Shown here in pieces: positions 3,842 through 60,565 of a stretch of 64,000 nt of DNA (positions are counted from its first letter, which is position 1; every line of letters begins with the position of its first letter). The stretch covers positions 83,176 through 147,175 of the forward strand of contig JBKBPM010000002.1 of assembly GCA_046293175.1 (NCBI GenBank), written 5' to 3'. The position numbers and the translations under genes are program-made. This stretch comes from Minisyncoccia bacterium. Lineage in GTDB: Bacteria > Patescibacteriota > Minisyncoccia > Phycocordibacterales > UBA918. The notes under the pieces were generated by a model, which ran no database searches, had not been told where the DNA came from, and was given only the letters and a program-made list of their open reading frames with translations.

Positions 3842-5266
3842 CTAATTGGAGTCGCGCCAATCTCGATATTCATAAACATCCGACGTTTCCGGAATAAACG
3901 GCGGTGGACTTTCTACCAAATTGCGGTCGTACGAAGTGTAGCGGTCAACAAAGCCGGAAGTGGTAACCCCACCACTCGTCCATTGTGTACCCACTCGACC
4001 ATTGGAAACGATAGTTCCGTTGTGGGTTTCAGAATTGCGAATCACAAAAGGATCAAAGGCGCCGGGCAAACCACGATTAACTCCCCCTGAAATACAATTG
4101 GCACAGTAGTGATTTCGACCATACCGACCATTTTGAGCAATAAAGATGCCGTTCAAAACCATATCATCAGGCACATTTAGACCAATAAGTACATCTTGTT
4201 CGGCAATAGCTAGCAGTCCCGAGGTGGTCGGCGAGGTGTAGGTAATATTATTTGCCAAGATAATTGATGGATTGATGGTTGTTGAAGTAGCAAAACTGGC
4301 AGCCAATGTAATTTTTTGCGGAATTGTCCCCTGCAACCAGACCTTGTCTTGCACGACTATGAGCGGACAGCTGTTTGAAATAGCGTACGTACCAACCGAA
4401 CTAGTGGCGTTAATTACATTTTGTTCGGTCTGCCAACCATTTTCAGTTGTGTACCCCCAATAGGTATGAACACTCGTCACCCGATTGACGGTGACGGTGT
4501 TGTTACTATTAAAGCGAATCTGGTACCCAAAGTTGCCGGCTGGTAATTTATCAAGAAAAATACCGTTACTCCGGGCTTTTGTTTCCATTTCGGCCAAATC
4601 TACGGTGATACCACCAAAACTAACTGGCGCAGACGGATAATCAAAGAGGCCAGCATTGGCATTTGCGGTGGTGGTAAAGACACCGTTACGGGTAGTGGTT
4701 GGGTTACATCCAAAACTCGGTGTACATGACCACGTCGCTTGTCCACTCGTGACGCTCGAGTTGTTTGTACCATCCATACGTACTCCACCATTACTGTGAT
4801 AGGGACCATTAATAATGCGGTCACTACCGGCCCATACATTACTGTTAATAATGAAGGAGTATTCTGCCACATTTGGTCGTGAGTACCGAGCGGATAGCGT
4901 TCTGACTATTGCTGGATTTTTGTAGGTATAGCCACGCGAGGTGATTTGTCTCGACATAACAGTCCCACAGAAAGTAGTACTAGCGAGGGTGAGTTGGTAT
5001 TCTCCGATTGGACCAAGCTCTGGGTCGCTGTACACTCCAGTTATCGCGGTTGAAGTACTATTTGGATAGTGAGCCAAATACCAACGATAGTAATCAAGAC
5101 CAGCTTCAGCAATTTGACCTGCTTGCTCAAATTGCATACGCTGCTCAATGAGACGACTCTGGGTCACAATAAACGTCACGAATGACGTGAGAATCACCAT
5201 AAACACACTCGCAAAAATAAGCACGTAGACCATCAGGAATCCTCGTTGTGCTTGTCGATGTTTCAT
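3842..5266 (-). CDS. PilX-like type IV pilus-associated protein (N-terminal TM anchor, large Ser/Thr-rich ectodomain)
   Basis: N-terminus QRGFLMVYVLIFASVFMVILTSF resembles the PilX_N hydrophobic segment. It is the last gene of the pilB-pilC-pilin operon, and its start overlaps the upstream gene. Confidence 0.5.
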   Translation of the reverse strand: MKHRQAQRGFLMVYVLIFASVFMVILTSFVTFIVTQSRLIEQRMQFEQAGQIAEAGLDYYRWYLAHYPNSTSTAITGVYSDPELGPIGEYQLTLASTTFCGTVMSRQITSRGYTYKNPAIVRTLSARYSRPNVAEYSFIINSNVWAGSDRIINGPYHSNGGVRMDGTNNSSVTSGQATWSCTPSFGCNPTTTRNGVFTTTANANAGLFDYPSAPVSFGGITVDLAEMETKARSNGIFLDKLPAGNFGYQIRFNSNNTVTVNRVTSVHTYWGYTTENGWQTEQNVINATSSVGTYAISNSCPLIVVQDKVWLQGTIPQKITLAASFATSTTINPSIILANNITYTSPTTSGLLAIAEQDVLIGLNVPDDMVLNGIFIAQNGRYGRNHYCANCISGGVNRGLPGAFDPFVIRNSETHNGTIVSNGRVGTQWTSGGVTTSGFVDRYTSYDRNLVESPPPFIPETSDVYEYRDWRDSN

Positions 5267-5268
5267 AA

Positions 5269-5901
5269 TTATAGGTTCTCTTTCAAGTTTCGTGGTGTGG
5301 CACTCCCCTGCAACATAAATTCTCCTGGCGAGCGAGCGGGATCGATGTTCACAATAAGATTAATTCGCAGGTAACGAATGTCCGAAATCATCGCGCTTGA
5401 TGAAGCAATCAAGGAACCAGCCTCATTATAATACCTGAAGGTGGTTTGGCCTTGTGAGAGGTTCTGTACATACTGTGACAGTATCTCAGTGCGAGTTGGT
5501 GTAGTAGTACTGTAGACTGGCGGATTGCCTGTTGCTTCATAGGTATCTTTATAGAGTGTCGTGGTGGAAAGTCGATACTCGACATATTCAACACTAAAAT
5601 CTTTGTCGATATCACTATAAAAACCCATCCGATGGCTTTCTGCTCGGGCGAGAGCAAAGGCACCATTGGCACCTGAAGTCATTTCTCGCGCATCTCGTAC
5701 CCAAGTCAAAAGACCTCGTCTCGCTACCTCAATCTCGTTGGCTTGTTCTAAGGTGACACTATTGTATTTGTAGATCTGCGTCACTGCATTCATGATTGCA
5801 AAGAGGAGTATCGTAAAGAGCGCAATAACAATCAAGGTTTCAACGAGCGTAAACCCTCTCCTTGCAAAACGCAGTTTCATACTCCTCGTATTATAGCGCA
5901 A
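5269..5901 (-). CDS. Prepilin-type (type IV) minor pilin / pseudopilin
   Basis: Class III signal MKLRFARRG|FTLVETLIVIALFTILLFAI (G/F cleavage site, Glu+5). The likely start is the internal Met. Confidence 0.7.
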   Translation of the reverse strand: MRYNTRSMKLRFARRGFTLVETLIVIALFTILLFAIMNAVTQIYKYNSVTLEQANEIEVARRGLLTWVRDAREMTSGANGAFALARAESHRMGFYSDIDKDFSVEYVEYRLSTTTLYKDTYEATGNPPVYSTTTPTRTEILSQYVQNLSQGQTTFRYYNEAGSLIASSSAMISDIRYLRINLIVNIDPARSPGEFMLQGSATPRNLKENL

Positions 5902-7648
5902 CCTCTACCACGGTATCCCCTGATATTAATACAGGATCAATAGTAGCTGTTGTGTACCCAGAAGCTGATACGCTGAGTTGATAATCAGCGGCACTCGTGA
6001 GTCCGTCAAAAAATACCTGGCCGCAACCACCGGTTGTTTCAACATCACTACTACCACGAGTTAATGTGACCGTAGCATTACGCAGTGGCATGCCTCCAGC
6101 CGTCACTACAACACGAAGACTGTGTGCACTATCAGGGGTAGTTATAAGGGTTAGGGTATTACTGGTATTTGGTGCGACCGCCAAAGGATGAGTGGTGCAG
6201 GCTTCTTCAATATCATAACCAGCAATCGTAACTTGGTAGGTGTCCCATTCGACGTTATTGAGAAGTCGCTCACCGTCAGTATCAGTAGTCGTAGAATAAT
6301 CGTGTTTATAGATAGGAGAAAAATCCAGCTGTGAACCAATTACTTTAGTCCCTCGCCAATTAAACGTGGTGGAAAGTGGGGTCTCGCTCTCTGTGTAGTA
6401 GAGTGTGACCGCATCAACTTGCGGAGTTACTGCAGTATTAGAAGTTTCTAGCGACACCCCAATCGTGAGACTGGGATAGGTAGTCGTATCAAGCTGACTA
6501 ATATCGATAGTATTCCCGACAAAACCAGCACTATTACCTGGCAGATCAGTGTCAGGAATTAAAGAATCTGGTGTCGTACTGGCATACACACGAATGAGTC
6601 GTGCGGTCTGAGCCGGAATTGATTCTTGGACTGTAATAGTCTCATAGCGCGCCAGTGAGGACGGGGCTACAGCAGTGAGCATCCCTACCCCATTTGTTTG
6701 GTACACTCCAGCGCTTGAAGCCAATTCAAGATTGCCGGCTACTACAGCAACGTTGGTTGATGATGCCAATTCAGAACTCGAGGCAAACGAACGACTGCTT
6801 GAGGCCTCAGTGCGATCAGACAGCAATCGCAGCGCAACCGTGCTAAGAGCATCGATCTGTACGTTCACTGTTGAAATATCTGCCGCCAAAAGTGAAATCG
6901 GCTGTAAGACTGGATTTGGGATTGAAGTAGTTGCGACATAGGTTTGTTCAGAGGAATAGCCCGCTCGGGTCACAAACACCTGATACCCCGAACCAGCTGG
7001 AGCACCACCAAATAATACCGATCCCGTACTGTCAGTGAGTTTTGTGACATCAACAGTTGTTGTTCCCGTTGTATTTAACAGTCGCACTGACGCTCCACCA
7101 ACCGGCGCCACATTTGCATCGGTGACATTCACCCGAATCGTACCACCACCAACATTAGTCTCGATAGAGCGAGGCACTATGGTCGTCACCAAAACCAAAC
7201 TTTCTGTCTCTTCATGCATAGTCCAAGTGATTTCAATTTTTGCACGTTTGTAATCTGTCGTAATTGAATTACTGTCACTAGCACCAAGACCATCAGCAGG
7301 GTCATCAATGTATTCAATCAAGGTACGTTCAGTAAATTGAAATCCATTAAGGGTCGAGGTACTCACTTGCGGGATATTCCCAGCTGGCAAACCACTAATA
7401 GTTCCAACCGCATCATAGGAAAGTGAACGAATATACTCGAGGCGGTCATTAGCCACCGACAAGGCAGACATCCGGGCTCGACTCTCCGCCACAAGCTTAA
7501 GCGATGTCTGGATCGTTACAAAGAGTCCACCAATAAAAAGCGCCATAATCGCTGCTACAACCAAAAGTTCAATAAGTGAAAAGCCGCGCAAACGAGAAGT
7601 CCGCATGAGTTTATTTAATACTATCACCAATCGAATAAATCGGCGCAA
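5891..7648 (-). CDS. Large (585 aa) prepilin-type N-terminal cleavage/methylation domain protein, a pilin-like T-rich surface protein
   Basis: RLRG|FSLIELLVVAAIMALFIGGLF prepilin motif followed by an approximately 550-aa Thr/Ser-rich domain. It overlaps its neighbours by 11 and 38 nt, which is typical of operon coupling. Confidence 0.65.
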   Translation of the reverse strand: MRRFIRLVIVLNKLMRTSRLRGFSLIELLVVAAIMALFIGGLFVTIQTSLKLVAESRARMSALSVANDRLEYIRSLSYDAVGTISGLPAGNIPQVSTSTLNGFQFTERTLIEYIDDPADGLGASDSNSITTDYKRAKIEITWTMHEETESLVLVTTIVPRSIETNVGGGTIRVNVTDANVAPVGGASVRLLNTTGTTTVDVTKLTDSTGSVLFGGAPAGSGYQVFVTRAGYSSEQTYVATTSIPNPVLQPISLLAADISTVNVQIDALSTVALRLLSDRTEASSSRSFASSSELASSTNVAVVAGNLELASSAGVYQTNGVGMLTAVAPSSLARYETITVQESIPAQTARLIRVYASTTPDSLIPDTDLPGNSAGFVGNTIDISQLDTTTYPSLTIGVSLETSNTAVTPQVDAVTLYYTESETPLSTTFNWRGTKVIGSQLDFSPIYKHDYSTTTDTDGERLLNNVEWDTYQVTIAGYDIEEACTTHPLAVAPNTSNTLTLITTPDSAHSLRVVVTAGGMPLRNATVTLTRGSSDVETTGGCGQVFFDGLTSAADYQLSVSASGYTTATIDPVLISGDTVVEVAL

Positions 7649-8843
7649 TGAGGGCTAGCGCAAAGAAACCAACTCCGGTACCAATCACGACCATGAGGAG
7701 TGGCTCGATAATCGTTGAGAGATCTTTGGTTTTTCTTTCCACCTCAATCTCATAAAACTGTGCCAGTTCACCAAGCATCTTAGCAATCGAACCAGTCTCT
7801 TCACCAACAAGAATCATTTCACCCACCAGAATCGGATACAAATCGTTGCGTTCAATAAATGTTTCAGATAAGGCAGTTCCCTTCTCAACCCGTTGCGCCG
7901 CCTCACGAATAATCTTTTTATAAAAATGATTTTGCACCACTTCTTCAGTAATGGAAAGCGCTTGGATAACATCAACCCCAGAATTGAGGAGCGAGGAGAG
8001 AGTGCGAGCAGTACGAGCGGCATTCGTTTCTTTAGCCATCGTACCAATCACTGGAAGCCTGGTCACGAGCCACGAGGTTGCTATCTTACCAGGTTTAGAG
8101 CGAATCATATACAGGAGCGCGGTCACAAACCCAATAATTCCCGTTAATGCAAAGACAGTATTCTCTACCATAAAATCACTCGCTGAAATGAGGAATTGAG
8201 TGGTCGCAGGTAGCTCAGTCCCCATCTGCTTAAAGATTCCTGTGATTGACGGCAACACAAAAATCATCATGAGAATTGCGATAATAACCATCACTGTAAT
8301 CACAATTGATGGATAAATCATAGCGCCTTTGATTTTCTTTTTGAGACTCGTGGAGCGCTCCATTTGAATAGCGAGAGTATGAAGTGACTCAGCAAGATTT
8401 CCTGCCTCTTCACCGGCTTTAATCATCGCCACATAAAGATCATCAAATACCTTTGGGTGATTATGCAAGGCTTCAAAAAACTGCCCGCCTTTATTGATGC
8501 GATCAATAATATCATGCACCGTAGCTTTCAGTTTGGCGTTTTTGGTTTGTCGTTCTATCACCGACAGCGCCCGCGTAACGGTAAGCCCGGCATCAAGCAT
8601 CGACCCGAGGTTGCGCGTCACCATCACAAGCTCATCTTGCTTCACTTTACCGAGCCAGGCATTAATCTTCTCTATATCAAAACCGCCAAGACCCAATGAA
8701 AGACCGCCGGCTTCGGTAACACTCGAGACAGTGTGGCCATTAGTACGTGCAACATCGTACACAGCGTACCGATCGGTCGCAGTAACTATCTCGCGAACTT
8801 TCTTGCCGCTACTGTCTTCTCCCTCGTAAATAAACTTACCCAT
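7611..8843 (-). CDS. pilC: Type IV pilus assembly platform protein PilC (GspF family)
   Basis: 410 aa, polytopic, two T2SS_F-like repeats, located immediately downstream of pilB. Confidence 0.85.
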   Translation of the reverse strand: MGKFIYEGEDSSGKKVREIVTATDRYAVYDVARTNGHTVSSVTEAGGLSLGLGGFDIEKINAWLGKVKQDELVMVTRNLGSMLDAGLTVTRALSVIERQTKNAKLKATVHDIIDRINKGGQFFEALHNHPKVFDDLYVAMIKAGEEAGNLAESLHTLAIQMERSTSLKKKIKGAMIYPSIVITVMVIIAILMMIFVLPSITGIFKQMGTELPATTQFLISASDFMVENTVFALTGIIGFVTALLYMIRSKPGKIATSWLVTRLPVIGTMAKETNAARTARTLSSLLNSGVDVIQALSITEEVVQNHFYKKIIREAAQRVEKGTALSETFIERNDLYPILVGEMILVGEETGSIAKMLGELAQFYEIEVERKTKDLSTIIEPLLMVVIGTGVGFFALALIAPIYSIGDSIK

Positions 8844-8851
8844 AGATAGAG

Positions 8852-10630
8852 CTATTCACTAATCACGCGAAGCACTTCTTCAACACTGGTGAGGCCTTTG
8901 GCGGCTTTATAAATTCCATCTTCCAGCATAGTGAGCATGCCTTCCTTACGCGCTTGCATCTCAAGCTCATCACTTGTCTTATGGTTCATCACCATATCTT
9001 TGATAGCTGGAGACATCTCGAGCACTTCATGAATACCCATACGGCCGTGATACCCGTCTGGGGTAATGCCGTTTTCATGTGGGTGATAAAACGAAATATC
9101 ATTCCAGGTAGCACCCTCACCCACCACTTTTTCTTCTTTAAGGGTCGCAAGTACCTTGTCGAGGTCAGCATATTTACCAATATCTTCTCGCTCAGCCTTT
9201 GAGAGAATGTACGGGACTTTATCATCACAGAGCTTACGAACGAGACGCTGACCAATCGCTACTCGTAGCGTTGATACCAGGAGGAAGGCTTCTGAACCCA
9301 TATCAATCAATCGTGCAATGGTACCAGCCGCACTGTTGGTGTGGACAGTCGCGAGCACGAGGTGACCGGTCAAAGCCGCATTAATGGCCAAGGAGACTGT
9401 CTCTTCATCACGAATTTCCCCTACCATAATGATATCAGGGTCCTGACGCATGAGGGAGCGCAGTCCCGCCGCAAAGGTAAAGCCAATCTCCGGTTTGACC
9501 TGGGTTTGGTTCACTCTTGCCATCTGGTATTCAATTGGGTCTTCAATCGTGGAGATGTTTACCTCCGGTGTATTGAGAAGGTCGAGAACCGTGTAAAGCG
9601 TCGTTGATTTACCCGAACCAGTAGGACCAGTGACGAGGATAATACCAGTAGTAGCGCGAGTGGCGCGGTGAATACGCTCAAGCGTTGAACCGTGAAAACC
9701 AATTCCTTCGAGCGAAAAACCGGTGCGATTCTCGCGCAAAAGACGCATGACGATCTTCTCACCGTAAAATACCGGCAATATCGATACACGAAAAGCTACT
9801 TTCTGCCCATCCATCTCCATCTTAAAGCGACCATCTTGGGGAAGACGCTTTTGATCGAGTTTGAGGTTCGAGAGCACCTTGATACGAGCAACGATAGTCC
9901 CTGAAGCGATCTTCGGTAGCTTCATGGCGTCGTTTAAGATACCGTCGATACGGTAACGGACGAGCACCTCATTCTCCATTGGTTCAATATGGATATCAGA
10001 CGCGCCCTGAATAATAGCGTGTCGTAAAAGGGTATCGACAATACGTACAACCGGCAAATCTTCGGCCATCTTTTTGAGGTCTGCTTCAGATACCTCTTCC
10101 CCATCTACTTCACTAACGACCGTTAGAGACGACGCGTCTTTCATGATGAGGTCACCAAACTCGTCTTTGAGGGTCTTTTGGTACTGGCGGAGTGCCCCCC
10201 GCATTGATTCGGTATCGGTGAGGCGTGGAAGAATCTTTAATCCTACCTTCTTTTTGATGAAGTCAATCGCTGGCAGGTCAGCGGTATCAAGCATCGCGAC
10301 TTCAAGCGCAGTTGCCGTCTTTTTGTAGGCAATAATATTATGGGTACGAGCTACCGGTTCAGGAATTAAAGAGAGGATGTCAAACTCGATTTTAAGGTCT
10401 TTGAGTGACACAAACGGCACCCCGAGGATGTATGACTCCACGCGACGCATGTCGTCTTCGGTCAGGTACCCACCCGCAATCAGGGTGTGGGCCAAGGGTT
10501 TGTCTTCAGAGCGGGCAGCTTTTTCGGCCGCACTCATATCAGCCTTCGAAACTAAGTTCGAATCGAGGATGAAGCGTTTGAGCTGGTCATCTAAAATACG
10601 CATATATAAGAAACCACACGAAACGAGCAC
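8852..10630 (-). CDS. pilB: Type IV pilus assembly ATPase PilB (GspE family)
   Basis: Walker A LVTGPTGSGKSTTLY, Asp/His boxes and an N-terminal GSPII_E_N-like domain; 592 aa. Confidence 0.9.
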   Translation of the reverse strand: MLVSCGFLYMRILDDQLKRFILDSNLVSKADMSAAEKAARSEDKPLAHTLIAGGYLTEDDMRRVESYILGVPFVSLKDLKIEFDILSLIPEPVARTHNIIAYKKTATALEVAMLDTADLPAIDFIKKKVGLKILPRLTDTESMRGALRQYQKTLKDEFGDLIMKDASSLTVVSEVDGEEVSEADLKKMAEDLPVVRIVDTLLRHAIIQGASDIHIEPMENEVLVRYRIDGILNDAMKLPKIASGTIVARIKVLSNLKLDQKRLPQDGRFKMEMDGQKVAFRVSILPVFYGEKIVMRLLRENRTGFSLEGIGFHGSTLERIHRATRATTGIILVTGPTGSGKSTTLYTVLDLLNTPEVNISTIEDPIEYQMARVNQTQVKPEIGFTFAAGLRSLMRQDPDIIMVGEIRDEETVSLAINAALTGHLVLATVHTNSAAGTIARLIDMGSEAFLLVSTLRVAIGQRLVRKLCDDKVPYILSKAEREDIGKYADLDKVLATLKEEKVVGEGATWNDISFYHPHENGITPDGYHGRMGIHEVLEMSPAIKDMVMNHKTSDELEMQARKEGMLTMLEDGIYKAAKGLTSVEEVLRVISE

Positions 10631-16078: not shown

Positions 16079-16626
16079 GCCTTGTATCTCGGTCACTTTT
16101 AGACGTCCTTGTACATCGTTATAAACTGCGAAAATGAGTAACTCTCCACTCGTAGCAAAGGCCCCAAGCGGGGCCTTTCTGCGTTCAAAATGCGAGCATA
16201 AACCAGATAATACCGAGCAGTATCCACCCCCAGAAGAGCGCTGACACCAGTTCACTTTCACTACAGATAATCAAGAATCGCTCAGTAACACCAGCCCGCA
16301 CATACTGCACATTACCGCGCTGTGTCCACCATATTTCATGATGAAGACTGCAGTGATACACCATGACATTCCCTACCATAAGCTGGCAAAGGATTAGAAA
16401 TACAATCATCAGTTTTCCTCCGCTATCTGGCTGATAGTATACCAAGTAGTCAAAATTAGGCAATGAATGAGCCGGTGTCGCATAAGGGGGAGTGAAGCCG
16501 ATTTTGGTCGGACACTCTTTGAAGTAGTCGTAGCGAATTAGCGCTAGTGCCTGACACCATAACGAGATTCCAGGTGCATAAAAAGTGCCAAGCTAGCGTC
16601 TATGGGCTTCGCAAAAATTCCTCCAG

Positions 16627-21319: not shown

Positions 21320-21770
21320 AATACATCACATCTTTAAGGTAATTTTGTAAAGCAACTTGAACATAATCCACCATATTTGCTGGTAAATTATCCAATGGAA
21401 ACCAGCTAGGGGGTCATCACATTAAATCAGCAAAATCTTTTTTCTTTTCTACCCTAACTGATTCTGCATCCTTAATTGCATTTGCTGTAATTCCTTGAGC
21501 TTTGCATAGTTACCAAAAAAATCGTATGTAACCATCGTGAGTGTATGAATTGAGACTGGGTCAGAATCTCTAAAATATATAAATGTATTGCAGCCTCAAG
21601 TTGCCTTTTCGCAGCATCGATTTTAGAAATAAAAATGATTGGTGCTCCTTTAGGCGTTTCCATATTTTTATTATAACTGGATGAGAAGAATCGGTCACTC
21701 TCATGGCTCTATTATTCGCAAGCTCATAATCTAGCTCATTCGCTCGGTTCTTACAGAACCTGTCCACTCA
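21320..21770 (-). pseudogene. Degraded, frameshifted remnant of an unidentified gene
   Basis: Several short overlapping minus-strand ORFs (21472-21663, 21570-21767) plus an in-frame C-terminal fragment ...PLDNLPANMVDYVQVALQNYLKDVMYSEYGY* read across frames. Confidence 0.35.
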
Positions 21771-22200
21771 TTCGCTTATTTGTTTCGCATGGCTCACAAA
21801 TATGCTGAATGAGTCTTGCGAAATGGGTCCCAGCCCATTTCTCACCCCACTCGCGTCACCCAATCCTCATTTCATTCCGGTCGGGTCCCCGACGCTTCGG
21901 TTCGATTCTTCACGAAAAGTGTCCCACACCTTTCTTCACTCCGCACAGCAATGTTGTCCGGGGATCCAAGTCCTTTTTCTGCCGCACCTCCCACTAGGTT
22001 GGCACACCGTCCATTCACTATGGGTGCTAGGGGAGAGCTGACGATCTGACCGGCTGATGGAGCCGTTCTAACATGCAGCACGTTACGGGGAACTTGCAGG
22101 CAGCACTACGGTGCGTGAGTCCTTCCCCCAACAGGGCCGTTCGCTCACGCGAACGGCTTATTACTTTGTCTGGGCGAGAAGAATCGGTCAGGAGTCGACT
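21684..22200. repeat. Cluster of degenerate tRNA-like fragments and dispersed AATCGGTCAC-type repeats
   Basis: gagaagaatcggtcactctcatggctc (21690) and gggcgagaagaatcggtcaggagtcgac (22165); cggttcgattcttcacg (21885). These are related to copies at 29690-29800 and to the 126-bp tandem repeat. Confidence 0.45.
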
Positions 22201-22297
22201 ATTTTTATACTCGTTTCACTCGTTAAAAATATGTCGCTCACGACCCTGCCTCGCCTCTCTCTTTTTCCGCTTCGCTCCAAAATTCACATGAGGCTCC

Positions 22298-22369
22298 GGC
22301 TTTCGATTCTTCTCACCCGCTACAAACGGCAACGGCCTAGAAACTTTCGTTTCTGGGCCGGCCGATTTG
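22298..22369. repeat. Extended inverted repeat / terminator downstream of tRNA-Gly(TCC); it contains a mirror pseudo-copy of the tRNA 3' half
   Basis: ggctttcgattcttctcacccgc + acaaacggcaacggcc-[loop]-ggccggccgatttgt, then the tRNA 3' end gcgggcgagaagaatcgaa. Confidence 0.6.
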
Positions 22370-22440
22370 TGCGGGCGAGAAGAATCGAACTCCCATCTAC
22401 TGGTTGGAAGCCAGTCATTTTACCACTAAACTACGCCCGC
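22370..22440 (-). tRNA. tRNA-Gly (anticodon TCC), no encoded CCA
   Basis: Revcomp gcgggcgtagtttagtggtaaaatgactggCTTCCAAccagtagatgggagttcgattcttctcgcccgc: 7-bp acceptor, D arm, anticodon stem actgg/ccagt with a 7-nt loop, T arm ttcgatt. Confidence 0.8.
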
Positions 22441-29689: not shown

Positions 29690-29930
29690 TGCAGAATCGG
29701 TCACGAGTCACTAGGCATAATCTTTCGCTTTGCTTAGTGTGGCCAGAGAGAATCGGTCCTTACAGGACCAGTTTTCATGAGTCGGTCACTCTCGTGGCTG
29801 GATTATGAATCGTCCTGACGGTCACCATGCTAGATTATTTCACTGTGTTCATAATCTAGCAGGTGCCGCGGGACACGCCTCACTTGTTTTGGCATTAGGA
29901 ATAGCCAAAACATCGTTCCGGCGTTCGATT
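29690..29930. repeat. Cluster of degenerate tRNA-3'-end-like repeats (AATCGGTCAC family) and T-arm-like fragments
   Basis: gcagaatcggtcacgagtcac, ggccagagagaatcggtccttacaggacc, gagtcggtcactctcgtggctgg, ggcgttcgattctctacgc; also one ATGTCCTTTAT site at 29636. Confidence 0.45.
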
Positions 29931-29957
29931 CTCTACGCAAAGCATACTAATACTTTG

Positions 29958-30019
29958 CTCTGGCCGCACATATGAAAAAAGACCCAGGGAAGGGTCTTTT
30001 TTCATATGTGCGGCCAGAG
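29958..30019. repeat. 28-bp-arm inverted repeat / terminator overlapping the tRNA-Gly(GCC) 3' end
   Basis: ctctggccgcacatatgaaaaaagaccc-aggga-agggtcttttttcatatgtgcggccagag. Confidence 0.65.
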
Positions 30020-30079
30020 AGAATCGAACTCTCGACTAAACCTTGGCAAGGTCTCATTATACCACTTAACCATGGCCGC
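30009..30079 (-). tRNA. tRNA-Gly (anticodon GCC), no encoded CCA
   Basis: Revcomp gcggccatggttaagtggtataatgagaccTTGCCAAggtttagtcgagagttcgattctctctggccgc. Confidence 0.8.
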
Positions 30080-30083
30080 AATA

Positions 30084-30764
30084 TTAATTTTTCAGCTCTT
30101 TCTCAAGCAAAGTAACCCAGTGACTAAGCTTCTTCTTGAGTAAAGTACTGGCGATTATAGTATTTCCGACGCCAAAATGCAACGTCTCTTTCCCAGCTCG
30201 ACCGGTAATAACCTGGTTTTTGTAGAATTGAGCAGGGGAGAGGGTAGTTTTTTGGCACCAGTGCTTCATACAAGCCACTTCATCAAGATCAGGGTAGAGA
30301 AGGAGCCAAAAGCGGATAGAACTCTTGGGTACGCCAAGATAGCCCGTGAGGAAGCGTATAAAGAGCTTGTGGAGTTGTGGGCGACTACCCGAGAGGCGAA
30401 TGAGGCGCGGGTTCTCTTGGTCTCCAGCGGTCATGTAGAGGGTGAGCCCAGCGACAAATAGTGGGGAAAAACGGTAGTTTTTGAATTCGACCTCAGCTAA
30501 GCGGGTGATTTCGGAGTATTGGTGCTTTCGTTCAGCCACTCGCGCTTTATTGATGAGGGCAAGACGCTTGGTGTTCTGTGCTACCGCTTGTTTCTTATTG
30601 TCTTTGGCCACCGCTTTGGAGAATGGTTCGTTCTTCAGCCAATTACTCACGGTGCCACGCGAAACACTACAGATCTTCGCGATTTCGGTATAGGTAAAGC
30701 CACGCCGGCGAAAGACGAGGGCTTGTTCATAGGCTTCAGGCTTGTACGAACGTACTTTTGACAT
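30084..30764 (-). CDS. HTH DNA-binding / LAGLIDADG-like protein (paralog B); stop codon 4 nt from the tRNA-Gly(GCC) 5' end
   Basis: HTH FRRRGFTYTEIAKICSVSRGTVSNWL; FVAGLTLYMTAGDQ motif; homologous along the full length to 22606-23259. Confidence 0.55.
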   Translation of the reverse strand: MSKVRSYKPEAYEQALVFRRRGFTYTEIAKICSVSRGTVSNWLKNEPFSKAVAKDNKKQAVAQNTKRLALINKARVAERKHQYSEITRLAEVEFKNYRFSPLFVAGLTLYMTAGDQENPRLIRLSGSRPQLHKLFIRFLTGYLGVPKSSIRFWLLLYPDLDEVACMKHWCQKTTLSPAQFYKNQVITGRAGKETLHFGVGNTIIASTLLKKKLSHWVTLLEKELKN

Positions 30765-30904
30765 TATAAAAGTTGTCTATAGTATACTGTAGCCAGTGTT
30801 CATTTCTAGCGCAAAACAATACCGGCAGGGGATACCGGTTGTGTTTACTCCTTTGATCTTAAGAATCGCCGTCGATTTCTTCTTTCTTACAGAAACAGTC
30901 CACT

Positions 30905-31262
30905 CATTGGGTATTTTATTTCGTTCCTCATAAAATATCTCATTCGCCCGACCCGGACTGTTCCGGCCCTAAAGGGAACCCCGGAACAGTCTTTCGAGTC
31001 CCTCCGGGGGCGACATGGACTCGGTCACGCTCATGGATATTTTATTTCGTTCCTCATAAAATATCTCATTCGCCCGACCCGGACTGTTCCGGCCCTAAAG
31101 GGAACCCCGGAACAGTCTTTCGAGTCCCTCCGGGGGCGACATGGACTCGGTCACGCTCATGGATATTTTATTTCGTTCCTCATAAAATATCTCATTCGCC
31201 CGACCCGGACTGTTCCGGCCCTAAAGGGAACCCCGGAACAGTCTTTCGAGTCCCTCCGGGGG
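30905..31262. repeat. 126-bp tandem repeat, about 2.8 near-identical copies, each carrying a plus-orientation pseudo-copy of the tRNA-Arg 3' half
   Basis: Unit ggatattttatttcgttcctcataaaatatctcattcgcccgacccggactgttccggccctaaagggaaccccggaacagtctttcgagtccctccgggggcgacatggactcggtcacgctcat; copies start at 30909, 31035 and 31161. Confidence 0.85.
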
Positions 31263-31264
31263 CG

Positions 31265-31311
31265 ACAAACGGCAACGGCCCAAATGCTTGCGCATTTGGG
31301 CCGGCCGTTTG
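31265..31311. terminator. Hairpin terminator downstream of tRNA-Arg, same scaffold as at 22322-22369
   Basis: acaaacggcaacggcccaaatgc-ttgc-gcatttgggccggccgtttgt. Together with 31245-31260 and 31316-31331 it forms an inverted repeat of about 40 bp per arm. Confidence 0.6.
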
Positions 31312-31383
31312 TGCACCCGGAGGGACTCGAACCCCCGACGACTGTTCCGAAGACAGTAATGATATCCACTTCACCACGGGTGC
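31312..31383 (-). tRNA. tRNA-Arg (anticodon TCG), no encoded CCA
   Basis: Revcomp gcacccgtggtgaagtggatatcattactgtCTTCGGAacagtcgtcgggggttcgagtccctccgggtgca. Confidence 0.75.
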
Positions 31384-31422
31384 AATGACTGGCAGTGTAC
31401 TACTCTTTGACCCAAAACTCAA

Positions 31423-32060: not shown

Positions 32061-33530
32061 ATGATTCAGTCGACTGATATTCCACTTGAGGTCCGCGCGG
32101 TCGCTGACAGACTCCGAAGTGCTGGCTATGACGCCTACCTCGTGGGTGGTTGTGTGCGTGATCTTCTCCTCGGGAAGAACCCAAAGGACTGGGATTTTAC
32201 GACCGATGCCGTGCCAGAGGCAATTATCGCTATATTTCCTGATAGTTTTTGTAACAATGACTACGGGACCGTGGGAGTAAAGACTGGCAGTGAAGACCCG
32301 CGCCTCTCAGTAGTCGAAGTCACCCCATACCGCAGTGAAGGGGAATATAGCGACGCCAGACGACCTGATTCTGTCACCTTTGGGGTATCGCTCGAAGAAG
32401 ACTTGGCCCGCCGGGACTTTACGGTCAATGCCATCGCACTACGGCCGCATGATGTAGCAATTATTGATATCTATGGCGGACTAGAGGATCTCCGCGCCAA
32501 GCGTCTCAAAGCGGTCGGGGAACCGGGTGAACGGTTTGCTGAAGATGCGCTCCGTATGATGCGAGCGGTACGACTGGCCGCTGAACTTGATTTCACTATT
32601 GATAGTGAAACGATGCAGGGAATTTTTGCCAACCGCGAGCGTCTGGGGCAAATTGCCATCGAACGTATCAGTACCGAGTTTCAAAAGCTTTTGTTGTCTG
32701 CCACCCCGATGCAAGGTATTGGTTTCTTAGAAAAACTTGGCCTATTGCCGTATGTTCTCCCCGAAATTGAACCAGCCATTGGCTGCGAGCAGGGAGGTAT
32801 TCATGAGTATGATGTCTACGAACACCTCTTGCGCACGCTGCAGGCGGCGGCTGATAAGGGCTACGGTATTGAAATGCGTCTCGCAGCACTGCTGCATGAT
32901 ATCGGGAAGCCAGCGACTAGACGAACTGGTGGTAAAAATAAGCTCTACACCTTCTTTGGCCACGAGGTAGTGGGTGCTCGGATGACCAAAGCGATACTAG
33001 AACGCCTGAAGATGCCACGCGATATCATCGATACGGTCGAAAATCTTGTGCGTTGGCATATGTTTTTTGCGGACACCGAAGAAATCACTCTGTCAGCCGT
33101 CCGTCGCACCATTACCCGAGTAGGGGAAGATCAAATTGAAAATCTCCTTAATCTCCGTGTCTGTGACCGGATTGGTACCGGACGTCCTAAGGAACAGCCG
33201 TTTCGCTTCCGTAAATACAAAGCCATGGTGGACGAAGCGTTGCGTGACCCAATATCGGTGAAAATGCTTAAAATGGACGGAACCCGGATTATGGCTTTAA
33301 CTGGGGAAAAGCCGGGGAAAAGGCTCGGATATATACTGCATGCACTACTGGAAGAAGTGTTGGTAGACCCTAGTAAAAACCGTGAAGAATACCTGGATAA
33401 CCGCGTAAAAGATTTGATTTTACTTGATGAAACAGCCCTTAAGGCCCTCGGGGACGCTGGTAAAGACAAACTGGCCGAAGAAGAGGCAGCGGCCCTCAAA
33501 GAAATCGCCCGCGAGCATAAGGTTGGTTAA
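32061..33530 (+). CDS. cca: CCA-adding tRNA nucleotidyltransferase with a C-terminal HD domain
   Basis: GGCVRDLLLGKNPKDWDFTTDA (pol-beta-like head), RDFTVNAIA, the HD motif LLHDIGKP. Confidence 0.8.
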   Translation: MIQSTDIPLEVRAVADRLRSAGYDAYLVGGCVRDLLLGKNPKDWDFTTDAVPEAIIAIFPDSFCNNDYGTVGVKTGSEDPRLSVVEVTPYRSEGEYSDARRPDSVTFGVSLEEDLARRDFTVNAIALRPHDVAIIDIYGGLEDLRAKRLKAVGEPGERFAEDALRMMRAVRLAAELDFTIDSETMQGIFANRERLGQIAIERISTEFQKLLLSATPMQGIGFLEKLGLLPYVLPEIEPAIGCEQGGIHEYDVYEHLLRTLQAAADKGYGIEMRLAALLHDIGKPATRRTGGKNKLYTFFGHEVVGARMTKAILERLKMPRDIIDTVENLVRWHMFFADTEEITLSAVRRTITRVGEDQIENLLNLRVCDRIGTGRPKEQPFRFRKYKAMVDEALRDPISVKMLKMDGTRIMALTGEKPGKRLGYILHALLEEVLVDPSKNREEYLDNRVKDLILLDETALKALGDAGKDKLAEEEAAALKEIAREHKVG

Positions 33531-57728: not shown

Positions 57729-58142
57729 ATGCAGTTTGAAGTCCCACAGTTTATTGAAATCGAGGACAAAATCTTTGGTCCACTCACCTGGCGACAATTT
57801 CTCTATGTTGGTGGGGGAGGACTGATGGCTGTCGTACTCTTTTTAACCACACCCATCTTTGTCTTCTTGCTCCTTGGACTCCCAATTGGGATTGTCGCTT
57901 TTCTCCTCGCGTTTTATCCAGTGAATAACCGACCATTTTCACACCTCCTTGAAGCTATGTGGACATTTCTCACTCGTTCACGGGTGTACCATTGGCAGCG
58001 GAAGCAGGAAGTGATATATAAAGACGCACAACCAGTTTACGATGGTAGTGACAACCCCGCGCTTAGTGACACTCTCATGGGCAAAAAAGATATTGCCTCC
58101 TTAGCGCGGCGCCTCGAACTCGACGCAATGCAAAAAAAGTAA
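57729..58142 (+). CDS. PrgI-family (VirB3-like) T4SS membrane protein
   Basis: IEIEDKIFGPLTWRQFLYVGGGGLMAVVLFL followed by a second TM helix; about 137 aa. Confidence 0.55.
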   Translation: MQFEVPQFIEIEDKIFGPLTWRQFLYVGGGGLMAVVLFLTTPIFVFLLLGLPIGIVAFLLAFYPVNNRPFSHLLEAMWTFLTRSRVYHWQRKQEVIYKDAQPVYDGSDNPALSDTLMGKKDIASLARRLELDAMQKK

Positions 58143-58145
58143 TCC

Positions 58146-58769
58146 ATGGCTTCTTCTACTTCATCAACCCAAGATTTCGTACCAATCCGTGACGTCAAAA
58201 ACGGCGTGGTTTTTTTGAAAAATGGGCAACTGTGCAAAATCCTCCTCGCATCGTCTATCAACTTTGCGCTTAAATCCCGCGACGAGCAGCAAGCGATTCT
58301 GTTCCAGTTCCAAAACTTCCTTAATACGCTTGATTTTTCTCTCCAAATCTATGTGCAGTCACGTCGCCTTAATATCGAGCCATACCTTGCCACCTTGAAG
58401 TCTCTCGAGAGTATCCAGTACAGCGACCTTATGCGTGTACAGCTCCGCGAATACATCGAATTCATTCGCACCTTCACGACTGAAGTAGACGTGATGAGTA
58501 AAAACTTCTTTGTCGTGATTCCATACACCCCGCCAAAACTCGATTTTAAGAAGAGCTTCACCACTATCCTCTCCCAAGGGCGGGCGGTTGAAACCAATAC
58601 CCAAGACGAGCAACGACTCCAGCTCGAGCAGCGTCAGACTGTGGTGGAGCAGGGACTTAACCGTATTGGTGTGCGTACAATCGCACTGCAGGATGAAGAA
58701 CTGGTCGAATTATTTTATCACATTTATAATCCAAGTGATGTCACGGGCAGTGCACCAATGCGCCAATAA
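58146..58769 (+). CDS. VirB4/TrbE-family ATPase, N-terminal domain, encoded as a separate ORF
   Basis: DFVPIRDVKNGVVFLKNGQLCKILLAS... ; the stop TAA lies 2 nt before the next ATG (TAATTATG). Confidence 0.55.
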   Translation: MASSTSSTQDFVPIRDVKNGVVFLKNGQLCKILLASSINFALKSRDEQQAILFQFQNFLNTLDFSLQIYVQSRRLNIEPYLATLKSLESIQYSDLMRVQLREYIEFIRTFTTEVDVMSKNFFVVIPYTPPKLDFKKSFTTILSQGRAVETNTQDEQRLQLEQRQTVVEQGLNRIGVRTIALQDEELVELFYHIYNPSDVTGSAPMRQ

Positions 58770-58771
58770 TT

Positions 58772-60565
58772 ATGGGTATTTTTGATAACTTCAAACCAAA
58801 AAAAGAAGAAAACAATGTCGATATGAGCGACAGCCTGTTAACTCTAACCGACGTCGTTGCACCATCAGCCATTTCAATTACGCCTCGAAGCATTAATATC
58901 AGTGGTACGATGGCTCGAGTTTTTTATGCGGTGTCCTATCCGCGATACCTCACCGATGGGTGGCTCGAACCGGTTCTTAATATGGAGAAGGAGCTTGATG
59001 TATCTATCGTCATCCATCCAATTAACACTGCCGAAACACTCAAAAAATTCCAAAAGAAAGTGGCTGAAGTGCAAAGCCAAATCAACATGCGGGCTTCACG
59101 TGGGGAAGTACGTGACCCTCAACTTGAAGCGGCGTACCGAAACCTCGAGGATCTCCGTGACAAGCTTCAGCAGGCTGAAGAAAAGCTTTTTGATGTGGGA
59201 CTCTACGTGGCAATCTACGGAGAAAATGAAACCGTCCTCAACAAAGTAGAGAATGAAATCAAAGGTAGTCTTGATTCGCGTCTCATTTATATCAAACCAG
59301 CCCTCTTTAAACAGGAGCAGGGGATTCACAGTATTGTACCAACCGCCACTGACGAGCTCCTTGTCCATAGCAAGTTTAATTCCTCACCACTCTCTAGTTT
59401 CTTTCCGTTTACCTCCTTTGACCTTACTTCAGACAACGGTATCCTCTATGGTATCAACCGCCACAATTCGTCTTTGGTGCTCTTTGACCGCTTTAGTCTC
59501 ACGAACTACAACTCAGTAACTTTTGCTACCTCCGGGGCAGGGAAGTCCTACAGTATCAAACTTGAAATTCTTCGTTCACTGATGTTTGGATCAGAAGTAA
59601 TTGTGATCGACCCGGAGCGTGAGTATGAGTATTTGGCCGAAGCTACCGGTGGTCGGTTTTTCAATATCTCACTCTCCTCAAACCACCACATTAACCCGTT
59701 TGACCTCCCACCACCAGGGGCGGACGAGAACCCAGCTGATGTACTACGGTCCCAGGTAGTGCACCTCATCGGCTTATTCCGGTTAATGCTCGGAGGGTTG
59801 TCTCCTGAAGAGGAAACGATTATTGACCTCGCCATCCGAGAGACCTACGCCCTTAAGGACATCACTGAGCAAATCAACTTTGCTGACCTCGAACCACCAC
59901 TCTTGTCTGACTTTGAGATGGTGCTGGCTGGTATGAATGGCTCAGCATCACTGATTGCTCGTCTCCAGAAGTATACCTCTGGTACCTGGTCTGGCTTCAT
60001 GAACCAGCCGACCAACGTCGATATCAACCAAAAGTTCATTGTGTTTAGTCTCCGTGACATGGAAGATGAACTCAAGACCATCGCGATGTTCATCATCACG
60101 AACTTTATTTGGTCAGCGATTCGTCGTCGTCTCGTGAAGCGCCTTCTCGTTATCGACGAAGCTTGGTGGATGATGAAAAGTGAAGATACGGCCTCCTTCC
60201 TCTTTAGTCTCGCAAAGCGCGGACGAAAATACTACCTCGGTATTGCAACGATTACCCAAGACGTAGACGACTTCCTTCGCTCACCGTACGGCGTCCCAAT
60301 GATTACGAACTCATCGCTACAATTTTTGATGAAGCAATCACCAACCGCTATCGATAACATTCAGCGGACCTTTAACCTCACTGACGAAGAAAAGTACCTC
60401 CTCCTTGAGTCAGACGTCGGGGAAGGGCTCTTCTTCGTAGGTCTCAAACATGTCGCTATTAAAGTGATTGCCTCGTACACTGAAGACCAAATCATTACCT
60501 CTGATCCGTCACAGATTTTGAAAATTCAAAATGCAAAACGTGAGCTCGCAGATCGTGAGTTGTAA
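58772..60565 (+). CDS. VirB4/TrbE/CagE-family T4SS ATPase (C-terminal ATPase domain)
   Basis: Walker A ATSGAGKSYS, Walker B LLVIDEAWWMM, 597 aa. Confidence 0.85.
   Translation: MGIFDNFKPKKEENNVDMSDSLLTLTDVVAPSAISITPRSINISGTMARVFYAVSYPRYLTDGWLEPVLNMEKELDVSIVIHPINTAETLKKFQKKVAEVQSQINMRASRGEVRDPQLEAAYRNLEDLRDKLQQAEEKLFDVGLYVAIYGENETVLNKVENEIKGSLDSRLIYIKPALFKQEQGIHSIVPTATDELLVHSKFNSSPLSSFFPFTSFDLTSDNGILYGINRHNSSLVLFDRFSLTNYNSVTFATSGAGKSYSIKLEILRSLMFGSEVIVIDPEREYEYLAEATGGRFFNISLSSNHHINPFDLPPPGADENPADVLRSQVVHLIGLFRLMLGGLSPEEETIIDLAIRETYALKDITEQINFADLEPPLLSDFEMVLAGMNGSASLIARLQKYTSGTWSGFMNQPTNVDINQKFIVFSLRDMEDELKTIAMFIITNFIWSAIRRRLVKRLLVIDEAWWMMKSEDTASFLFSLAKRGRKYYLGIATITQDVDDFLRSPYGVPMITNSSLQFLMKQSPTAIDNIQRTFNLTDEEKYLLLESDVGEGLFFVGLKHVAIKVIASYTEDQIITSDPSQILKIQNAKRELADREL

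Follow-up and report, generated by a model that had tools for sequence, protein, structure and literature searches.

What is a short tandem array carrying pieces of a tRNA in inverted orientation doing directly behind the tRNA gene that it resembles, and how did it arise? In the 64,000-nucleotide stretch of DNA analyzed here (the window), Tandem Repeats Finder delimits such an array at 30903-31267, with a period of 126, 2.9 copies and 99% matches, on the 3′ side of tRNA-Arg(TCG) at a spacing of 43 nt. When the three units are compared in register, they are identical over 108 nt with the sole exception of position 30911, the only base specific to unit 1, and a 35-mer from the unit occurs at three places only within the window, all of them in the array (0 expected). 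Each unit contains TTCGAGTCCCTCCGGGGGC, 19 nt that are 95% complementary to the T-loop/acceptor region of tRNA-Arg, and CGGAACAGTC, which matches the 3′ part of the anticodon loop/stem at 10 of 10 positions. Relative to the gene, both matches are in reverse orientation but colinear, except for a deletion of 7–8 nt that corresponds to the variable loop and the 5′ strand of the T-stem. In addition, all units carry the 11-nt inverted arms GACTGTTCCGG/CCGGAACAGTC, referred to below as hairpin hp2. The observation of a 126-bp array is confirmed, and with it several points of the first-pass annotation: a tandem repeat next to tRNA-Arg, an inverted tRNA-like segment, an 11-bp internal inverted repeat, and the exclusion of a CRISPR array, since the units are contiguous and identical, with no unique spacers between them. 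Between tRNA-Arg and the array, a search for a canonical terminator gave none.

Contigs from a public short-read sample (SRR31360863), possibly but not necessarily independent of the source of the window, bear on the copy number. Two of them hold the unique flanks of the array: L001 ends ~30 nt, one k-mer, inside unit 1, and L039 begins ~30 nt, again one k-mer, before the end of unit 3. Such ends are the behavior of a de Bruijn assembly at a true repeat with two different continuations, here GCGACA/TGGACTCG and GCGACA/AACGGC on the right-hand side (a slash marks the junction). Because the contig ends require a repeat of this kind, the sample holds at least two real copies; the exact number of three is the count in the window's assembly alone. 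The inter-unit junctions are identical, which points to a single junction that formed and was copied afterward; an iterated att-site duplication, one of the origins that had been suggested, does not account for the array. Furthermore, a relative (L033/L004) has a single copy at its orthologous tRNA-Arg(TCG) locus, one against three, and the array is therefore a recent tandem amplification, as its near-identical units had led the first reading to propose.

Read on the tRNA strand, the locus comprises the tRNA, a trailer hairpin (H), an anti-tag (S′, complementary to the tRNA between T-loop and acceptor end), two conserved hairpins with invariant joining strands, and a tag, which is a direct copy of the last 18 nt of the tRNA beginning inside the T-loop (Table 1). 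In the units of the window, the direct tag is cut down to GGACTCG (7–8 nt). H is bordered on both sides by CAAAC/GTTTG, and its base sequence, CTACAAACGGCAACGRCC, is conserved at other loci and occurs again at 22320-22337, behind tRNA-Gly(TCC). The palindrome that H forms with the two flanking tRNA ends has arms of ~43 nt, in which 39 of 43 aligned positions match. What stays constant between loci is the base of H and, in the anti-tag, its ‘CTA’ tip, while the intervening tRNA-matching stretch is variable; a simple local duplication is therefore not a sufficient explanation.

Table 1. Coordinates of the array, its surroundings and the other module loci of the window.
Feature	Position	Strand	Evidence or boundary
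tRNA-Gly(TCC) locus (third module locus), trailer of tRNA-Gly(TCC) 22369-22440	21686-22368	.	
Family G module, tRNA-Gly(TCC) locus	22186-22309		
H-type hairpin, tRNA-Gly(TCC) locus	22320-22368		
tRNA-Gly(GCC) locus (second module locus), trailer of tRNA-Gly(GCC) 30008-30079	29690-30007	.	bounded by ...GAATCG/GTC...
Family E module, tRNA-Gly(GCC) locus	29814-29935		
Left flank common to L003: cupin 3′-end remnant and start of resident related module	30859-30910	.	
Start of resident related module, GTCCACTCATTGG	30898-30910		
Unit 1, 5′ end hybrid	30898-31023	.	nhmmer family-A match 30907-30997
Unit 2, complete 126 bp	31024-31149	.	repeat register and family alignment
Unit 2 junction strand GTCACGCTCATGG	31024-31036		
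Unit 2 AT hairpin hp1	31036-31065		
Unit 2 junction strand CTCATTCGCCCGACCCG	31065-31081		
Unit 2 hairpin hp2	31082-31117		
Unit 2 T-loop-like TTCGAGT	31119-31125		
Unit 2 inverted copy of tRNA-Arg T-stem/acceptor	31126-31141		
Unit 2 direct T-loop remnant GGACTCG	31143-31149		
Unit 3: core and inverted tRNA-Arg 3′-end copy, continuing into trailer hairpin	31150-31267	.	
Large palindrome: unit 3 inverted tRNA 3′ end, H, real tRNA-Arg 3′ end	31245-31331		
Trailer hairpin H, AACGGC-AA-CGGCCCAAATGC / TTGC / GCATTTGGGCCG-GCCGTT	31268-31310	.	
tRNA-Arg, anticodon TCG, no encoded CCA	31311-31383	minus	ARAGORN and Rfam

Searching other genomes for the unit gave a divided answer: JGI metagenomes and GTDB representative genomes do not contain the exact 23-mer across the unit junction, GGAACAGTCTTTCGAGTCCCTCC, but a homologous core is present in metagenomes and GTDB genomes. 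This family (family A) was recovered solely through two patterns, a hairpin-arm pattern with the loop left free, which hits 28 metagenome contigs (12 of them clear whole-core homologues), and a core 24-mer pattern, which hits five loci in three GTDB genomes. Parcubacteria metagenomes supply at least 15 distinct copies of the core, which spans ~105 nt and is 88–100% conserved among them. Aligned over ~105 nt, 15 distinct copies have a mean column identity of 88% and share the invariant strands GGTCACGCTCATGG, CTCATTCGCCCGACCCG and GTCTTTC. Every family-A copy for which sequence is available lies 3′ of a tRNA and in constant orientation relative to it. Seven tRNA species precede the core, namely Arg(TCG), Arg(TCT), Arg(GCG), Ala(GGC), Leu(TAA), Gln(CTG) and Phe(GAA), and the same species carry the module again in different genomes.

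The core is conserved behind all seven tRNA species, while the tag and anti-tag follow the local tRNA. Specifically, only the ~20 nt after the core, from T-loop to acceptor end, track the local tRNA, and mismatches of the anti-tag concentrate at the acceptor tip, often as ‘CTA’. The 7 nt to the left of the core are GGAATCG, GGACTCG or GGACTTG and co-vary with the T-loop on the right; they are the remnant of a direct copy of the tRNA end. The boundaries of the module fall at a constant T-loop position, ...TCG/GTCAC and GTCTT/TCGA. In one locus (L013), a perfect 18-nt direct repeat, CGATTCCAAGCCGGGGCA (C56 to A73), is found in the tRNA and again after the module, the insert being ~190 bp long and non-coding, and a canonical terminator lies beyond the second copy of the repeat. 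Elsewhere in the family, 7–13 contiguous nt of the direct tag are kept.

These comparisons do not support the view that the unit derives from this tRNA-Arg: the core, hp2 and the arm that had been read as anticodon-stem-like are conserved beside Gln, Phe, Ala, Leu and other Arg tRNAs. The orthologous tRNA-Arg(TCG) in L033 has a different anticodon stem and the same hp2. Because hp2 is conserved across loci behind different tRNAs, the 11-bp inverted repeat is a feature of the family. The first-pass annotation had also named the outcome that would undo its own reading, a widespread generic REP-like element unrelated to tRNA-Arg, and this describes the family in part: the element is widespread and not Arg-specific, but it is specifically linked to tRNAs and is not REP-like. 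Likewise, ‘structured RNA array’ and ‘att-like duplication’ each catch a part of the anatomy.

Two further readings of the core were considered and rejected. A direct tRNA ‘pseudo-half’ inside it does not extend past the hairpin arm any better than shuffled sequences do (1646/5000), and a hammerhead reading of GAAA-hairpin-GUC fails on inspection by eye, the CUGAUGA box and the A15.1-U16.1 pair being absent. At the gathering threshold, Rfam gave no match to the modules, either in the window or in L013, L033 and L035, and a permissive Rfam scan (E ≤ 10) of 30780-31420 returned tRNA only.

Modules occupy three tRNA trailers within the window; tRNA-Pro has no trailer and no module. In the sister families, a common layout runs from GGTCAC through an AT hairpin, whose loop is TTTCG...CTC, to the motif CGACCC, another hairpin and TTCGA. 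At the tRNA-Gly(GCC) locus, a perfect palindrome is formed with the tRNA 3′ end, with arms of 28 nt, and because it includes unique trailer sequence, at least the inverted copy there was made locally. The tRNA-matching stretch of family E is split into T-stem and acceptor parts by an element-specific hairpin. The tRNA-Gly(TCC) locus contains an inverted tRNA-Gly end and shares the hairpin base CTACAAACGGCAACGGCC with the Arg locus. Outside the window, units of a sister family stand in tandem in L012, and in L002, a close relative, the tRNA-Arg is not followed by a module. Three relatives differ in what follows their tRNA-Arg(TCT), with A in one, E-like plus F in another and F plus A in the third, so that module content turns over.

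Both hairpins keep their pairing despite sequence change, hp1 within family A and hp2 in one hybrid copy read by eye. In hp1, four pairs show compensatory change; 95.8% of cells are paired, a level that 0 of 500 shuffles reach. The hybrid copy (L022) has a different hp2 stem with the same apical loop, GGCCCTAAGGGGACC. The complete L013 module (3903-4043 of that locus) is predicted to fold into a three-way junction, closed by a 12-bp helix of anti-tag and tag, with an energy of −64.9 kcal/mol (z −6.7) for the tRNA strand, against −55.7 kcal/mol (z −6.3) for the opposite one. The folding energy thus favors the tRNA strand, in contrast to the wobble pairs, of which two U·G pairs in hp2 and a G·U pair at the base of hp1 favor the strand opposite the tRNA.

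We consider it probable that the array is a recent tandem triplication of family A, one of the dispersed ~105-nt structured modules that occupy tRNA trailers in Parcubacteria/Paceibacteria (CPR), and that these modules are a sequence-unrelated counterpart of the tRNA-linked repeats (TLR/RtT) of E. coli. Short direct and inverted repeats of the tRNA end may drive replication slippage, unequal crossing-over and loss of palindrome centers. At this locus, slippage or unequal exchange between two copies of the tRNA end that contain GGACTCG would have produced a first duplication; the unstable center of the palindrome would then have been deleted, leaving the junction GCGACA/TGGACTCG; and the resulting 126-bp unit would have been duplicated once more. 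To judge by the E. coli TLRs, transcription probably reaches the modules as read-through from the tRNA, and the tag/anti-tag helix, a copy of acceptor/T-stem sequence of the tRNA, would allow tRNA-processing enzymes to release them. Single-step insertion by a serine/tyrosine recombinase, IS200/IS605-like insertion, rejoining after a restriction cut and ODIRA-like triplication could not, on reasoning alone, be reconciled with all junctions, and none of them is proposed here.

The array lies between tRNA-Arg and the gene for a conserved 226-aa HTH protein (30084-30764). The names given to homologues of the neighboring protein place the window in a Patescibacteria (Parcubacteria/Paceibacteria) genome. 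In relatives, this interval holds a cupin gene (L002, L003) or beta-lactamase, lactamase_B and cupin genes (L004), and the window retains only the last ~50 nt of it. The cupin gene is intact at this place in both L002 and L003. In L003, the 3′ end of the cupin gene has a related module within it, and the remnant in the window ends in the start of such a module, with the crossover into the family-A core at ~30905-30911. Because unit 1 shows the same hybrid 5′ end as the L003-like remnant, the array is placed at a deletion junction. The deletion would most simply have occurred through recombination between two related modules: the module of this locus may have recombined with a relative of it that lay upstream of the HTH gene, with loss of the cupin and lactamase genes that relatives keep. 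Modules would then matter as sites of gene loss, as in the cupin and lactamase deletion here, and they break short-read assemblies at tRNA loci.

A serious rival holds that the modules are selfish, non-autonomous, MITE-like DNA, inserted at the tRNA T-loop by an unseen enzyme acting in trans that duplicates the 18 bp from C56 to A73 and copies the target end in inverted orientation, the array being a by-product. It overlaps with the preferred explanation, the main difference being whether an RNA function exists. In its favor, cores are near-identical between genomes whose neighboring protein is only ~77% identical, and the boundaries are always at one position of the T-loop; the L013 insert is bounded by an 18-bp direct repeat with the original terminator pushed outward, arrays look nested and chronological, content varies among relatives, and the related module of L003 lies within a cupin gene. 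However, Pfam annotates only housekeeping, pilus, T4SS-like and unknown proteins among the ~50 ORFs of the window, with no integrase, transposase or reverse-transcriptase domain, and the precomputed Pfam annotations of called genes in L001–L004 and L039 likewise include no integrase, transposase or reverse transcriptase. Three core patterns have 0 matches among 2.9 million viral contigs, on which ground a phage or plasmid origin was rejected, and only 2 matches were found per GTDB genome. The recurrence of the same tRNA species across genomes fits old vertical inheritance as well, and DNA that is simply carried along cannot on its own explain a tRNA-specific stretch between conserved sequences. 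Inverted repeats of the form GGA(A/C)T(C/T)G ... C(G/A)A(T/G)TCC flank the module, but they change together with the T-loop of the local tRNA and are therefore derived from the target and not borne by the element; element-borne terminal inverted repeats, as in a MITE, were not found. We regard this rival as possible, though rather unlikely.

It is very unlikely that the modules are attL/attR scars, left when islands encoding an integrase repeatedly integrated at and excised from tRNA genes and lost their interiors. The direct repeat in L013, which starts in the T-loop and covers the tRNA 3′ end, is what such scars would show, and in relatives the interval from tRNA-Arg to the HTH gene does hold additional genes (beta-lactamase, lactamase_B, cupin). 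Nevertheless, the same ~105-nt core with the same internal joins recurs at seven tRNA species, so that the modules are not a set of independent scars, and one attP cannot hold seven different tRNA ends. The inverted copy and the palindrome are not products of integration, the ~190-bp non-coding insert is no kilobase-scale cargo, and the scans for integrases and viral matches described above were as empty for this reading as for the previous one.

A further alternative is that each unit is an independent small-RNA gene on the strand opposite the tRNA, with its own promoter in hp1, H as a terminator shared with the tRNA in both directions and a product that imitates the tRNA 3′ end in its own 3′ part. 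The wobble pairs are compatible only with this strand. On the plus strand, units 2 and 3 do contain a sigma-70-like match, TGGATA-17-TAAAAT, and H has CAAAC/GTTTG on both of its sides. Yet this promoter-like match is part of the AT hairpin, decays elsewhere (TAAAAC in L034) and was not found in the sister modules of the window, for which reasons an internal promoter was rejected. In addition, the fold is ~9 kcal/mol weaker than on the tRNA strand, and RtT of E. coli lies on the tRNA strand. We therefore judge an opposite-strand gene highly improbable. Finally, that mis-assembly inflated a single unit is scarcely credible: with 100% identity over 108 nt, the units are beyond what short-read assemblies can count, but the SRR31360863 contigs, ending one k-mer into the repeat from both flanks, require at least two copies in that sample, and tandem multiplicity is also seen in the L012 sister family.

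A recent triplication of family-A modules, our preferred explanation, can be set against several known systems. BIMEs/REP of enterobacteria and BOX of Streptococcus pneumoniae resemble the modules in being short, hairpin-rich, modular, dispersed and non-coding, with variable tandem number. They have, however, no link to tRNA genes and contain no copy of a neighboring gene's end, and no RAYT-like transposase, as for REP, was seen here. Integrases that target tRNA genes leave a classic mark, a direct repeat of the tRNA 3′ end starting in the T-loop, and as at an att site, such a repeat bounds the insert and the tRNA is regenerated; the modules differ in their ~190-bp insert with no integrase found, the same core at seven tRNAs and the extra inverted copy of the tRNA end. 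Template switching at hairpins generally yields quasi-palindromes and inverted duplications, and the perfect palindrome at tRNA-Gly(GCC), with its 28-nt arms, extends a terminator hairpin into unique flank in just this way, but the process leaves the conserved core and the conserved asymmetric base of H unexplained. 3′ETS-leuZ is a tRNA 3′ external transcribed spacer that acts as a small RNA (PMC8144298). It is similar in that a functional RNA may come from the trailer of a tRNA precursor, as predicted on the CPR side, and different in having no repeat family and no tRNA-end tag.

The closest counterpart is found behind tRNA genes of E. coli. A 178-bp repeat, present 3.14 times distal to tyrT/tyrV, was reportedly described by Egan & Landy in 1978 and Rudd in 1999. 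When re-examined, K-12 tyrV shows a 178-bp tandem repeat of 3.1 copies that overlaps the last 19 nt of tyrV, and each unit combines a 22-nt, 86% inverted copy of the T-arm with a direct 19-nt tag, the two being able to pair over 10 bp. As a positive control, the E. coli locus L038 gave four RtT matches on the tRNA strand at 133–138 bits. [quoted passage not shown] The function and origin of most are unknown; the examples rrA/rrB/rrF give the processed small RNAs RrA, RrB and RrF (PMC8144298).

The CPR modules share much of this architecture. Both lie directly 3′ of a tRNA gene; both occur in few copies at several different tRNAs (1–5 per locus in E. coli; 2.9 copies here and seven tRNA species in the family); and both contain an inverted T-arm/acceptor copy able to pair with the tag. 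The identity to the tRNA end is 18/18 in L013, 7–13 nt in other copies and 7–8 nt in the units of the window, so that the feature which defines TLRs is complete in relatives only; because the CPR tRNA genes have no encoded CCA, the tag ends at the discriminator. The modules differ in host phylum (CPR), in having several sister families with interchangeable cores, and in an anti-tag that is joined to the real tRNA end by a conserved hairpin, giving the palindrome with ~43-nt arms. They have no sequence similarity to TLRs, and the Rfam RtT covariance model (RF00391) finds no match in 30780-31420, even at E ≤ 10. Since the hallmarks are shared and the sequence is not, we file the CPR modules as a sequence-unrelated kind of TLR and not as members of RtT.

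That the same hallmarks appear in a very distant, genome-reduced lineage with no shared sequence points to a general mechanism that makes or maintains this architecture, rather than to an enterobacterial accident. A bolder conjecture, which we think unlikely, is that the CPR modules and the E. coli TLRs are two independent cases of one unrecognized process, in which a conserved structured core would be placed into tRNA genes at the T-loop, with the target's 3′ end copied as direct tag and inverted anti-tag, the tRNA-matching stretch serving as a targeting guide or as a minihelix handle for RNase P, RNase Z or the CCA-adding enzyme (whose gene lies at 32061-33530 of the window). If true, the modules would be mobile or processed RNA elements that are programmable and templated by tRNA. 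The CPR family offers informative variants, with interchangeable cores, intact and collapsed palindromes, and one against three copies, which makes the question of origin approachable through comparative genomics and metatranscriptomics. We found nothing relevant on CPR tRNA-linked repeats in the literature. The CPR modules are new in sequence, in host and in their palindromic link to the tRNA, and belong to a kind already known from E. coli.

Tandem duplication is found in a sister family, D, behind tRNA-Arg(GCG) (L012, also L013 and L037). Specifically, each family D unit terminates in an inverted tRNA end followed by a truncated trailer hairpin. The duplication and its unit ends together indicate, therefore, that tandem amplification with a collapsed palindrome recurs in the module family.

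Within the window, modules also lie behind two tRNA-Gly genes (see table). In the tRNA-Gly(GCC) trailer, every module is delimited by ...GAATCG|GTC..., and the module at 29814-29935 closely resembles a copy located behind tRNA-Phe in another genome (L035; nhmmer E 9e-32). In both of these copies, an element-specific hairpin (ACGCAA...TTGC) interrupts the inverted tRNA end, separating its T-stem part from its acceptor part. The GC-rich stretch of the tRNA-Gly(TCC) trailer spans ~270 nt (about 21900-22170) and includes a strong hairpin at 22134-22159. It contains no ORF and has no match in Rfam, and it may be another structured RNA.

Features discussed, with coordinates in the window unless a locus is named
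Feature	Location	Strand	Description
tRNA-Gly(TCC) trailer	21686-22368		several modules and a GC-rich stretch
tRNA-Gly(GCC) trailer	29690-30007		four or five related modules, occupying the whole trailer
Conserved 226-aa protein	30084-30764	minus	HTH_23 domain at N-terminus
Sister family D	L012 1320-1621 (also L013, L037)		tandem duplication behind tRNA-Arg(GCG), ~178-bp spacing
Inverted tRNA-Tyr copy	L038 (E. coli K-12 NC_000913 1286300-1288000), 864-885 and its repeats

The modules are not strictly limited to tRNA trailers, since in the relative L003 a related module is inserted within the 3′ end of the cupin ORF. Between the trigger-factor and clpP genes lies a stretch (16080-16175) that starts with TCGGTCAC and carries both a CTCTCCACTCG motif and a GC hairpin; it may be a degenerate module that does not adjoin a tRNA. 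The cupin, lactamase_B and beta-lactamase genes located between tRNA-Arg and the HTH gene have been lost in the window genome (30859-30910, compared with L002, L003 and L004).

The tRNA-Arg(TCG) genes of relatives (31311-31383 in the window, compared with L002 and L033) have acceptor and T arms in common, while their D and anticodon arms are strongly different. Furthermore, one base pair of the anticodon stem is flipped between the window and L002, so that the window stem matches hp2, the 11-bp hairpin of the module core, at 10/10 positions.

In the conserved HTH protein, the N-terminal HTH_23 domain is accompanied by a helix of ~50 residues and by an unassigned C-terminal domain of alpha/beta type. 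Its homologues number 531, the best 120 of which are 64-96% identical, and in relatives tRNA-Gly(GCC) always follows the HTH gene within a few nucleotides. Its AF2 model (pLDDT 83) has no significant match in the PDB. By visual impression only, the protein carries a LAGLIDADG-like motif (FVAGLTLYMTAGD).

Elsewhere in the window are a type IV secretion-like cluster (57729-60565), with PrgI-like and TraG/VirB4-like genes amid many ORFs that lack a Pfam match, and a type IV pilus/T2SS-like cluster (5269-10630), with T2SSE, T2SSF and prepilin-type N-terminal methylation motifs.

An architectural counterpart of the modules is RtT, the tRNA-linked repeat of E. coli. Each 178-bp unit distal to tyrT/tyrV contains an inverted copy of the tRNA-Tyr T-arm and acceptor (22 nt, 86%), and 10 bp of pairing are possible between this "anti-tag" and the direct 19-nt tag.
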